From NCBI GenBank assembly GCA_046328905.1, contig JAXLVP010000001.1, forward strand, positions 2,725,018 through 2,757,017: 32,000 nucleotides of DNA, written 5' to 3'. Numbering within the stretch: position 1 is the first letter of the stretch; each line of letters starts with the position of its first letter. The notes under the pieces are model-generated. The model saw only the letters and a list, made by a program, of their open reading frames with translations. It did no database searches and had not been told where the DNA came from. Below, in pieces: positions 25,130 through 28,259 of the stretch. A program made the position numbers and the translations under genes. This DNA is from Bdellovibrionota bacterium (GTDB lineage Bacteria; Bdellovibrionota_C; UBA2361; SZUA-149; CAZDWZ01).

Positions 25130-25684
25130 CTAATCCTGCCACTTAATCGTGCAACCCAGCACTGGAGTGAGCTGCGGCGAAGGAGTTTGCCCGGCGAGAA
25201 CGGCTTCGATGGCGTTCTTGAGCGCGGGTGAGGTCACCTTCTCTGGGTGCTGCGAATTGTCGTCGATCCAACCGTGATAAGCCAGCTTCATCTCGCGATC
25301 GAAGAGATACGCTTCCGGTGTGCACGCCGCATCGTACGCGCGCGCGACAACCTGCTTTTCATCGTGGAGATATGGGAACGCAAAGCCGAGCGATTTGCTC
25401 TTTTCGACCATCTGCTCGAACGAGTCTTCCGGATAATCGTCAGCATCGTTTGCGCAGATAGCGACCATGCCCATGCCTTCCGGTCGATAGCGTGAGGCGA
25501 GCTCGCAGAGCCTCTGCTCATACGCGCGGGAGTAGGGGCAGTGATTGCATGTGAAGACCACGAGCAGAGCGCGGCACTCAGCGAAATCAGAAAGCGAGTA
25601 GATCTTTCCGTCGGTCGCAGGAAGGCTGAAATACGGCGCTTTCTCGCCGATCAGCAGAGTGACTTCGTTCGCGGGTCTTTCCAT
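25130..25684 (-). CDS. Thioredoxin-fold protein (AhpC/TSA-TlpA-like, CxxC type)
   Basis: 184 aa with the redox motif FTCNHCPY and an overall peroxiredoxin/thiol-disulfide oxidoreductase-like layout. Confidence 0.82.
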   Translation of the reverse strand: MERPANEVTLLIGEKAPYFSLPATDGKIYSLSDFAECRALLVVFTCNHCPYSRAYEQRLCELASRYRPEGMGMVAICANDADDYPEDSFEQMVEKSKSLGFAFPYLHDEKQVVARAYDAACTPEAYLFDREMKLAYHGWIDDNSQHPEKVTSPALKNAIEAVLAGQTPSPQLTPVLGCTIKWQD

Positions 25685-25843
25685 GGGTAGCTAAAACGAC
25701 AGATTCAATCCTGGACTTTAAGCTTAACCTGCTTCCTCGCTCTCATCGTAAGCAAAGGCTCTTGAGAGGTCGGGACCTTAGAGCGGTTCGGAGTCGATTG
25801 CAACAGAAAACCGCGCCGCTCACGTAATATTGACGGATCTCAA

Positions 25844-25887
25844 ACGAAAAAAAGAAGGCCAAAGACTCCGAATGGAAATCTTTGGCC
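25844..25887 (-). terminator. Orphan Rho-independent terminator on the minus strand
   Basis: GGCCAAAGA (25857-25865) pairs perfectly with TCTTTGGCC (25879-25887), with an inner TCC/GGA extension. On the minus strand the hairpin is followed by TTCTTTTTTTCG. No annotated minus-strand CDS lies upstream of it. Confidence 0.7.
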
Positions 25888-26050
25888 CGGGTTAGAGTAA
25901 GTTATGGTGGCATGATTACCCAGCCGCAGGTCTAGGTCAGTGGAGTTTGTTGCGGCGAGCACTCGCGTATTGTCTATGCTAATAGTGTGCCAATCGTTGG
26001 TCCATGCGGTCTCATGCTTGTTCCGGGAAGTTCAGTTCCCGCTGAATATA
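25888..26050 (-). ncRNA. Candidate unannotated sRNA or structured 5' leader ending at the orphan terminator; the 5' end is a guess
   Basis: Inferred only from the terminator and the lack of any plausible ORF. Local hairpins are present (CGGGAActgaacTTCCCG, CCAAcgaTTGG). A weak TATATT -10-like box lies at 26050-26045. I recognise no Rfam family. Confidence 0.3.
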
Positions 26051-26243
26051 GAGTAATTTCGAAACGTTTTATTGATGCGTTGGCCCTGCCGACATATCTC
26101 TATCTCCACGCCTGATCGAAGCTGATCGAAACAGTTCGGCGTGACAGATCTGAAGTAGTGTGTTTTGCCAAGATGGCGACTGAGCACGCGGCTCGGATCG
26201 GTTACCGTGTCCGGCGAATAGCATCTCCAATGACAAAGGCTCT

Positions 26244-28259
26244 ATGACAGTTTCATACACGAAAGAACAGCTCACCCTCGTTGCGAACACCATCCGTATG
26301 CTCTCGGCAGATGGTGTCGAGAAGGCGAACTCCGGACACCCGGGAATGCCTATGGGAATGGCGGATCTCGCCGCGGTGCTGTGGCTCAAGTATCTGCGCT
26401 TCAATCCGGAGCAGCCCAAGTGGCTGGCCCGCGACCGATTTGTTCTGTCGAACGGGCACGGCTCGATGTTGCTGTATTCGCTGCTCCACCTCGCGGGCTT
26501 TAAGTTGAGCATCGACGATCTCAAGCAGTTTCGTCAGTGGGAAAGCAAGACACCGGGCCATCCTGAGTCTTATATGACCGAAGGTGTCGAGTGCACGACC
26601 GGCCCGCTCGGACAGGGGATCTCAAACGCCGTGGGAATGGCGATTGGCCAGAAACTGATGGCTTCGCGTTACGACGCAGATCTCTTCGCCCACCGAGTAT
26701 TCGTTTTTGCAGGTGACGGCTGCCTGATGGAAGGCGTGAGCAGTGAAGCGAGCTCTGTTGCCGGCCACCTCGGGCTCGGCAACATGATCGTCATTTACGA
26801 CGACAACCACATCAGCATCGCCGGCCACACCGAGCTCGCTTTCACGGAAGACGTTTGCAAGCGCTATGAGGCGTATGGATGGAACACTATGCGCATCGAC
26901 GGTCACGACTACGACCAGATCGATAAGGCGCTTGCGGCCGCCGTCGCTGTCACGGATCGCCCGACTTTAATCGCGGCACGTACCACCATCGGATGGGGAA
27001 GCCCGAATAAGAAGGACACCCACGGCGTTCACGGAAGCCCGCTCGGCAAAGACGAGATGGCGGCAACGAAGAAGGCGCTCAATTGGCCTCAAGAGCCAAC
27101 TTTCTACGTTCCGGACGAGACGAAGAAAGCATTCGCCGGCCGAATCGAATCACTGAAGCAAGAGTACTCCTCATGGGTCCAGAAGTTCGAAGGCTGGAAG
27201 AAGGCGAAGCCGGATCTCGCAAAGGGCCTTGATGCTCAGGTCAAGCGCGAAGTCCCGGCCGACCTCGCTGATAAGTTGATCGCGGCGCTGCCGACCGACG
27301 GCAAGCCGGTTGCGACGCGCAAGCTTTCACAAAGCGTGCTGCAAGCGCTGTCCGCGAATGTAAATTCGGTTATCGGCGGTTCCGCTGACCTCGAACCATC
27401 GACGCTCACGCTCATCGCGGGCTCCGGGGACGTAGAGAAGGGAACCTTCTCCGGCAAGAACCTCCGATTCGGGGTCCGTGAGCATGGCATGGGCGCCATC
27501 ATGAACGGGCTTGCGTACTACGGCGGCTACATCCCGTACGGTTCGACGTTCCTGTGCTTCTACGATTACATGCGGCCGACGATTCGGCTGGCGGCGCTTT
27601 CGCATCTGCCGGGACTCTTCATCTTCACCCACGACAGTATCTTCCTCGGCGAAGATGGTCCGACGCACCAACCAATCGAGCATGTGAACTCGGCGCGGAT
27701 GGTACCGAACGTCCATGTGTTCCGTCCGGCGGATGGGCTCGAAGTGGCCATGTGCTACAAGCTCGCTGTCGAGCTCAAGACCGGCCCCGCGCTTTTCTCA
27801 CTGACCCGTCAGAACCTGCCTCAGCTCGAGCGGCCGCAGGCGTTCAAGAAAGAAGACATCGAAAAGGGCGCATACGTGCTCTACGAATCGAAGCCTGGGA
27901 CAGCTCCGCAGATCTGCTTCGTCGCCACCGGCTCCGAAGTCGGACTTGCGCTCGAAGCGGCGAAAACCCTCGCGGAGAAGGCGGCGGTTCGTGTCGTTTC
28001 GATGCCCTGCTGCGAGCTGTTCCGCAAGCAGTCCAAGCAGTTCCGCGATCAGCTCGTTCCCCCGGCGTCAAAGAAGGTCGTGTGTGAAGCAGGTACGAGC
28101 TTCGGATGGGCTTCCATCCTCGAGGCCGATATTTCATCGCTCGAGTGCTGCTGCATCGATCACTTCGGTGCATCCGCACCGGACACTGTCCTAGCAGAGA
28201 AGTTCGGCTTCACCGCGAAATCGGTCGTCGAGCGAGTCACCAAACGATTCCTGAGCTAG
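26244..28259 (+). CDS. tkt: Transketolase
   Basis: 671 aa with TPP-binding motifs ([25 protein letters not shown]) and a transketolase pyrimidine-binding/C-terminal domain ([19 protein letters not shown]). Confidence 0.95.

Follow-up and report, generated by a model that had tools for sequence, protein, structure and literature searches.

A predicted sigma-54-dependent small RNA gene between divergent peroxiredoxin-like and transketolase genes in a Bdellovibrio-like order

Results

We use comparative sequence analysis to study a 559-nt gap (25685-26243) between two divergent genes in a window of Bdellovibrionota DNA, the window being the whole 32,000-nt stretch that was analysed (contig JAXLVP010000001.1, positions 2,725,018 to 2,757,017). 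On the minus strand the gap is bordered by prx, a peroxiredoxin-like gene that is the first of a prx / 132-aa / LOG-like string, and on the plus strand by the transketolase gene tkt. As a sequence-only reading of the same DNA had pointed out, this is the longest non-coding stretch of the window (on a crude map of open reading frames, ORFs, the runner-up measures 394 nt). Within it we find, on the prx strand, a sigma-54 promoter motif followed by an intrinsic terminator (Table 1), and we think it likely that the two delimit a free-standing gene for a non-coding RNA of ~120 nt, namely an independent, trans-acting small RNA (sRNA) whose transcription would depend on sigma-54 and an activator. What we compute here are the terminator and the promoter motif, their conservation in a fixed geometry and its boundaries, the lack of coding potential between them, and the presence in the genome of rpoN and of activator genes. 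The genome of the window, which we call G000, is a wastewater metagenome-assembled genome of 5.1 Mb that is 95.6% complete; the gap stretch is single-copy in it, and the reads of four DNA runs that cover the gap represent the same strain, with two SNPs only.

Table 1. Features of the prx-tkt locus, in window coordinates
Feature	Position	Strand	Basis or remark
prx, AhpC/TSA-Redoxin (peroxiredoxin-like, thioredoxin-fold) gene	25130..25684	-	Pfam PF00578, 7e-20; synteny anchor for all comparisons
Terminator U-tract UCUUUUUUU, predicted RNA 3' end	25847..25855	-	follows the stem directly
Intrinsic terminator hairpin GGGCCAAAGAUUUC / loop CAUUC / GGAGUCUUUGGCCU	25856..25888	-	terminator scan and fold
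Conserved, mostly single-stranded block CAUGCCACCAUAACUUACUCUAACCC (RNA nt 53-78), core CUUACUC; candidate seed	25889..25914	-	conservation and unpaired probability
SL1 core stem-loop, GCCGCA (nt 11-16) / UGCGGC (nt 39-44), variable loop	25923..25956	-	7-homologue consensus fold
Predicted sRNA, ~120 nt	25847..25966	-	runs to the end of the U-tract from a predicted start placed 12 nt past the -12 GC
Sigma-54 (RpoN) promoter TGGCACACTATTAGCAT, TGGCAC-N5-TAGCAT; GG at -24, GC at -12	25976..25992	-	most conserved block of the gap
Upstream element CGGGAAC-TGAAC-TTCCCGGAAC, inverted repeat	26020..26041	-	GGGAAC starts 48 nt before the promoter
tkt, transketolase gene, divergent from prx	26244..28259	+	Pfam PF00456, 2e-137

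A conserved terminator in syntenic gaps

The terminator had already been recognised from the letters of the window. Our terminator scan places it at the same positions, as a 14-pair stem running from 25888 to 25856 with a 5-nt loop, followed by TCTTTTTTTC; that is, a GC-rich stem-loop and U-tract of the Rho-independent kind lie at 25888->25847. The 66-nt terminator folds with -21.8 kcal/mol (z = -3.8), a stability that 0 of 200 shuffles match. Because the plus strand has no T-run past the hairpin, termination is predicted on the minus strand only, in agreement with the earlier description.

Is this hairpin conserved? A plain similarity search at the DNA level, run with the gap against 60 relatives, returns two chance fragments only, which by itself would make the region look private to this genome and would undercut the sRNA. 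Because this search found nothing real, we use the prx protein as an anchor and compare the DNA next to it. The prx-tkt locus is assembled in only 18 of the 31 genomes of the order, and prx and tkt are divergent neighbours in all 18, with gaps of 162-854 nt. Ten of these 18 gaps, all ten of them at least 454 nt long, carry a homologous stem GGCCGAAGAU...AUCUUCGGCC on the prx strand, and a T-run of 5-9 follows the stem directly in every homologue. Where the relatives have GGCCGAAGAU...AUCUUCGGCC, the window has GGCCAAAGA/UCUUUGGCC, a G-C to A-U change that is compensated. An alignment of the orthologous gaps, which had been proposed as a check for covariation, shows that 8 of the 12 pairs of the terminator stem have changed on both sides; 95% of cells are paired over the ten sequences, compared with 32-56% in slid controls, and 0 of 500 shuffles reach a covariation score as high. 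By this comparison of sequences the hairpin is no chance match, being conserved with compensatory changes in relatives, and the apparent lack of conservation in the plain search is overturned.

The unit recurs as a whole. Ten of the 31 genomes of the order, from 6 of its 14 families, have promoter, RNA body and terminator in the same order and spacing in their prx-tkt gap. We also collected twelve further prx loci from unrelated public assemblies, whose prx proteins are 64-79% identical to that of the window. A covariance model built from the last ~70 nt (71 nt) of the ten RNAs, which we call R1 and from which the promoter is excluded, matches six of these twelve upstream of prx and on the prx strand with 44-56 bits. 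All six, which come from metagenomic relatives, carry TGGCACA-N4-T[AC]GCAT even though the promoter lies outside the model. In five of the six the RNA 3' end falls 116-122 nt past the start predicted from the promoter, and in one, with an enlarged 5' domain, the distance is 259 nt. This last locus (L133:1207-1494) has its promoter 259 nt, not ~118 nt, before the RNA 3' end, with a 5' insertion of ~140 nt and with seed and terminator unchanged.

A sigma-54 promoter and an upstream element

The sequence-only reading had missed a promoter that lies ~120 nt upstream of the terminator on the same strand. It appears when the DNA upstream of the homologous terminators is aligned, as the block TGGCAC-N5-T(A/C/T)GCAT. 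The consensus of sigma-54 promoters is TGGCAC-N5-TTGCW, with 10 nt between the GG (-24/-25) and GC (-12/-13) doublets. Across the 16 loci (the ten of the order and the six further ones) the spacing of the doublets is canonical without exception, no change is seen at T1, G2, G3, A5, T12, G14 or A16, a single locus departs from C15, and the five bases of the spacer are free to vary, giving the logo T-G-G-Y-A-Y-N-N-W-A-N-T-N-G-C-A-T.

The genome has the machinery that such a promoter requires. G000 encodes sigma-54 (rpoN; PF04552, one hit, 219 bits) and holds ~10 strong PF00158 hits to enhancer-binding activator genes, and rpoN is found in 30 of the 31 genomes of the order, the exception being a genome that is 66% complete. 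Consensus sigma-54 sites between genes number only ~7 in the 5.1 Mb of G000, and the promoter of the prx-tkt gap is among them. Another serves as an internal control: a sigma-54 promoter TGGCATCGAGATTGCAA at G000:C2:1160558 (-) stands ~170 nt ahead of pilA, which encodes a type IV pilin (MRNQKGFTLIELLVV...), and adjoins a gene for an enhancer-binding protein at C2:1161404, the classical PilR/sigma-54 arrangement. From the ~7 sites and the context of pilA and its activator gene we conclude that the motif is both rare and in use in this genome.

Further upstream, 15 of the 16 loci have a GG(G/T)WACC element whose distance to the TGGCAC box is 48 +/- 2 nt. In the clade of the window it forms GGGAAC-N-GTTCCC inverted repeats, of the type TGGGAAC-N9-GTTCCCA, and in locus L136 it reads TGGGAACCGATTTTTCGTTCCCA. 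The CGGGAA/TTCCCG repeat that had been described earlier as a local hairpin of the RNA corresponds to this element: the repeat is real, though it lies at 26024-26041, one base off the reported 26023-26040, and it is not part of the RNA but upstream of the sigma-54 promoter. Judged from its sequence and position, it is more likely a candidate site for an activator, that is, an enhancer-binding protein. Other GGGAA..TTCCC copies near a sigma-54 promoter or an activator gene are not convincing, and one of them is probably the pilA terminator.

The predicted RNA

Promoter geometry most likely puts the start of the RNA near 25966. The sequence-only reading had offered, as one of two possibilities, an independent sRNA of 150-200 nt running from ~26050 to ~25846; this possibility, with its end, is supported, but the start moves to ~25966 and the length shrinks to ~120 nt. 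The homologous RNAs from the ten genomes of the order measure 101-150 nt. The RNA of the window folds with -36.3 kcal/mol (z = -3.4), and every homologue folds in the same manner, as a 5' hairpin, an unpaired linker and a terminator, with z between -2.7 and -6.7.

These three parts are conserved to different degrees. A consensus fold of seven close homologues preserves the 5' stem SL1, with G-U wobbles and a single compensatory change from A-U to G-C. A 5' hairpin is also predicted in each of the more distant homologues, but the 5' domain is unalignable across the order, where a full-length consensus fold supports the terminator alone. Between the two hairpins, a 36-nt linker block (CAUGCC..CUUACUCU..ACCC) is nearly invariant in the seven close homologues, whereas the loops of both hairpins are variable. 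Its consensus in the seven sequences is CAUGCC(A/U)CCAU(A/G)ACUUACUCU(A/G)ACCC(G/A)GGCCAAAG, and a core AUGCC..UUAC(U/A)C..ACC is common to the whole order. With a mean unpaired probability of 0.87 in the RNA of the window, the 36-nt block is both conserved and accessible, as is expected of a seed region. There is a hint of what it might pair with: the complement of the block resembles a ribosome-binding region (GGAGUAAG...).

The boundaries of conservation coincide with those of the predicted transcription unit (Table 2). The identities of the segments rise at the promoter, fall in the spacer, rise again at the predicted +1 and fall once the U-tract is passed.

Table 2. Nucleotide identity along the gap
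Segment	Two within-genus pairs	Six close relatives of the window
Far upstream	56%, 93%	22%
60 nt before the promoter	75-79%	36%
Promoter	94-100%	87%
9-nt spacer to predicted start	67%	36%
RNA	95-98%	68%
Terminator to prx	66-74%	23%

We find no sign that the conserved stretch encodes a protein. The gap holds small ORFs of 32-51 codons, among them the 40-codon GTG ORF from 25962 to 25840 that had been listed before and that indeed reads through the hairpin. None of the gap ORFs has a Pfam match or tblastn conservation in relatives, and the ORFs inside the ten RNAs of the order share no common frame or length, several of them running through the terminator. In silico, the stretch thus has its own promoter and terminator and no coding potential, the marks of a discrete transcription unit. 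It belongs to no known RNA family that we can recognise: the earlier reading could match it to no riboswitch, 6S, SRP, tmRNA or RNase P signature, and Rfam 15 gives no hits over the whole window at gathering thresholds, and at E <= 10 over 25600-26350 it gives a single spurious lincRNA hit (E = 3.6) and no riboswitch, T-box or leader family.

These data bear on the alternative that there is no functional RNA here at all and that we are looking at a relic terminator, a chance hairpin or a gap that encodes a small protein. The empty plain DNA search and the existence of the 32-51-codon ORFs would fit such a view. Against it, promoter, RNA and terminator are conserved with covariation in 16 loci once the comparison is guided by synteny, and the ORFs lack Pfam matches, tblastn conservation and a common frame or length and read through the hairpin. 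We regard this alternative as very improbable, the comparative sequence data having already refuted most of it.

Distribution in the order

Model R1 finds one copy in G000 and, among the 31 genomes of the order, the same ten genomes that synteny had given; in 93 other genomes of the class it finds nothing. Weak R1 matches in G023, G024 and G028 lack a sigma-54 promoter and are not this RNA. Two genomes of family f13 (L044, G028:C77:1104-1175; L046, G024:C235:8495-8565), met through these weak R1 matches, share GTAACCTTTACGATAATGCTCCCATTCT followed by a strong terminator, and this element, which has no sigma-54 promoter, looks like a different conserved small RNA. A pattern scan of metagenomes for promoter plus terminator gave one match, inside a coding ORF and hence a chance match, and a scan of genome contigs with the prx protein returned distant homologues from Myxococcota and others and not the order's own loci.

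Twelve relatives keep the prx operon without the unit, in gaps of 118-556 nt that are mostly shorter than 400 nt. The six further loci that R1 does not match include four (gaps of ~120-320 nt) without the whole unit, one without the sRNA in 447 nt of upstream DNA and one with too little upstream DNA to judge. On a tree of prx and tkt the presence of the unit is patchy and takes at least 3 changes, a pattern consistent with an old gene that has been lost more than once, the sister genome of G000 being one such case.

The same tree places the genomes with divergent prx and tkt in a clade with 100% support. In other families of the class (L024-L033), the two genes share a strand, with prx 30-60 nt upstream of tkt; from this difference in gene order we conclude that an inversion created the gap that now houses the sRNA. 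Two details of the flanks deserve mention. The ATG of prx (25684, minus) is preceded by ...GUUUUAGCUACCC, with no purine-rich Shine-Dalgarno sequence in window positions 25685-25700. On the tkt side, a tandem CTGATCGAA repeat (26112-26130) sits between the upstream element of the sRNA and tkt; because it is found in 0 of 24 related loci and the DNA around it is only 22% identical among close relatives, it is probably no conserved regulatory site.

An independent RNA or a leader of the prx operon?

The second possibility raised by the sequence-only reading was a riboswitch-like or attenuating 5' leader of the thioredoxin-fold operon. In the light of the promoter, this would become a sigma-54-driven leader or attenuator of the prx / 132-aa / LOG-like operon, with the short RNA as a by-product or as one of two outputs. 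The geometry is inviting: as in riboswitch and attenuator leaders, a conserved structured RNA with a terminator precedes an operon in the same orientation, and it does so in 16 of 16 loci. We recognise no independent prx promoter between terminator and start codon, and prx lacks an obvious Shine-Dalgarno sequence. Yet the unit is not kept together with its supposed gene, the 12 relatives described above having the operon alone. Attenuation also calls for mutually exclusive folds, whereas the 5' half of the terminator stem finds no other complementary segment, no antiterminator is predicted, and the terminator forms with a probability of 0.86-0.99 in all 10 full-length RNAs, with strong U-tracts of 7-9 that suggest efficient termination. 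The distance from terminator to start codon is long and variable (92-316 nt, unalignable, 23% identity), and no riboswitch, T-box or leader of Rfam matches. To our knowledge, sigma-54 promoters are not typical of riboswitch leaders. On balance we disfavour the leader and hold it to be unlikely.

Discussion

How would an independent sRNA of this kind work? In the scheme that we favour, RNA polymerase carrying sigma-54 would bind the TGGCAC-N5-TAGCAT promoter (25992->25976) and form a closed complex. An AAA+ enhancer-binding activator would be needed to open it, and the probable binding site of this activator is the GGGAAC...TTCCC repeat ~50 nt further upstream. Transcription would then run from near 25966 to the intrinsic terminator, with a 3' end at ~25847, and would yield an RNA in which a nearly invariant, unpaired stretch rich in C and U links a variable 5' stem-loop to the terminator hairpin. 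The unpaired stretch would most likely pair in trans with mRNAs encoded elsewhere in the genome, at purine-rich regions that resemble Shine-Dalgarno sequences (GGAGUAAG-type), in an organism for which a search found no Hfq. We infer the start site, the activator site, the base pairing in trans and expression itself from the conserved architecture described above.

Several observations weigh against this scheme. The -12 box reads TAGCA and not TTGCA. Only ~65 nt separate the start site from the centre of the upstream element, less than for most enhancer sites described, and a second convincing copy of the element is not found in G000. By the positions of the PF00158 hits, no activator gene lies near the RNA, and none lies in the window. 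No listed RNA run contains the stretch, and the two species-representative genomes of the same family do not have the RNA. At the downstream end, transcription may read through into prx, because no separate prx promoter is recognised. The absence of Hfq comes from one Pfam search of the 95.6%-complete genome. The complementarity of the linker to the start regions of prx and tkt is no better than that of shuffles (z from -2.0 to +2.0), and scans of the RNA's own genome for targets stay at chance level and identify none. The best non-self match there is 15 bp long, in a 3' UTR just past a stop codon, which is about the chance expectation.

The missing target and the missing Hfq would also suit a different mode of action, in which a sigma-54-dependent RNA binds or titrates a protein, or acts by mimicry as GlmY does, instead of pairing with mRNAs. 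A stem sequence GGCC(G/A)AAGA that is conserved beyond the needs of termination could be read in the same way. The most conserved part of the RNA, though, is a long unpaired C/U-rich stretch of the kind that is typical of seeds; there are no repeated GGA motifs of the CsrA type, the single GGA lying inside the terminator stem, and there is no long duplex like that of 6S RNA. We take such a protein-directed role to be quite improbable and return to the base-pairing sRNA as the reading to be compared with known systems.

One close parallel in architecture is Pxr of Myxococcus xanthus and other myxobacteria, an sRNA of ~108 nt with a predicted sigma-54 promoter of its own and an upstream enhancer site, and with several stem-loops that end in a terminator-like hairpin, confined to one lineage and to a fixed intergenic position (PMC5568312). 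Like Pxr, the RNA of the window would be short and terminator-ended, transcribed from its own sigma-54 promoter, restricted to a lineage and fixed in one gap, and the host of Pxr was once placed in the Deltaproteobacteria together with Bdellovibrio. The neighbourhoods differ, pxr lying between the activator gene nla19 and an NADH dehydrogenase gene while the present RNA lies between prx and tkt with no activator gene nearby. Nor are the RNAs alike in themselves: the probe sequence given for Pxr (PMC5568312) is G/C-rich and unrelated, and the conserved part is SL1/SL2 in Pxr but the unpaired linker in the RNA of the window.

In Enterobacteriaceae, GlmY and GlmZ depend on sigma-54 and are activated by GlrR, an activator of the response-regulator type, at inverted-repeat sites (PMC4152352). 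GlmZ pairs through a single-stranded stretch between its last two stem-loops, which is the position of the conserved block in the present RNA. The GlrR sites (TGTC-N10-GACA), by contrast, lie more than 100 bp upstream with IHF sites in between, whereas our candidate site is ~50 nt from the promoter; glrK-glrR adjoin glmY, whereas no activator gene adjoins this RNA; and the gap has no Rfam match at E <= 10 except the one spurious hit. The Qrr sRNAs of Vibrio are short, terminator-ended and dependent on LuxO and sigma-54 (PMC10162802). They share with our RNA a nearly invariant unpaired seed among homologues, and their pairing of sigma-54 with a dedicated activator is the arrangement we would expect here. 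They differ in being Hfq-dependent and often multi-copy, where the present RNA is single-copy and Hfq was not found in G000, and in lineage and synteny, and our RNA gives no Rfam match. NcS25 of Burkholderia, which we considered as a further sigma-54 sRNA analogue, was rejected because no sigma-54 motif is reported upstream of it (PMC10117139). By the lack of a covariance-model match in Rfam, by different synteny and by unrelated sequence, the RNA of the window is outside the Pxr, GlmY/GlmZ and Qrr families.

What we describe is a predicted and previously undescribed sRNA gene of a Bdellovibrio-like order, built on the already known principle of the sigma-54-driven sRNA. The RNA regulators of Bdellovibrio-like bacteria are little known, and most of this order is uncultured. 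Against that background the finding offers a precisely bounded sRNA gene, conserved across the order, and names its type of promoter, a candidate site for the activator, a seed and a terminator. With these parts defined, genome annotation, metatranscriptome searches and heterologous tests of the RNA become possible. The comparison shows, too, that from plain DNA similarity alone the gap would have been wrongly called unconserved.

The finding also adds a lineage, beyond the Gammaproteobacteria and the myxobacteria, in which a pair of sigma-54 and activator appears to drive a small RNA. A second unit in the same genome may be another sigma-54-dependent non-coding RNA: at G000:C1:1560956-1561270 (+) (L129:957-1270), downstream of a canonical sigma-54 promoter TGGCACGGAAATCGCAT come ~270 nt free of ORFs and a strong terminator GAGAGCAGCCGAAAGGCUGCUCUUUUUUUU, with no Rfam hit and no match by DNA search in the order.

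We close with a bolder idea, which we offer tentatively and think rather doubtful. The RNA might be the single output of a dedicated activator-sigma-54 switch, of the LuxO-Qrr kind, that sets a programme of lifestyle or stress response in a lineage lacking Hfq. If this were true, the fixed location of the gene between a peroxiredoxin-like and a transketolase gene would make redox or carbon state an example of such a programme, and the RNA and the unit at G000:C1:1560956 would together suggest that these uncultured bacteria have a small family of riboregulators under sigma-54 control that operate without the classical chaperone.

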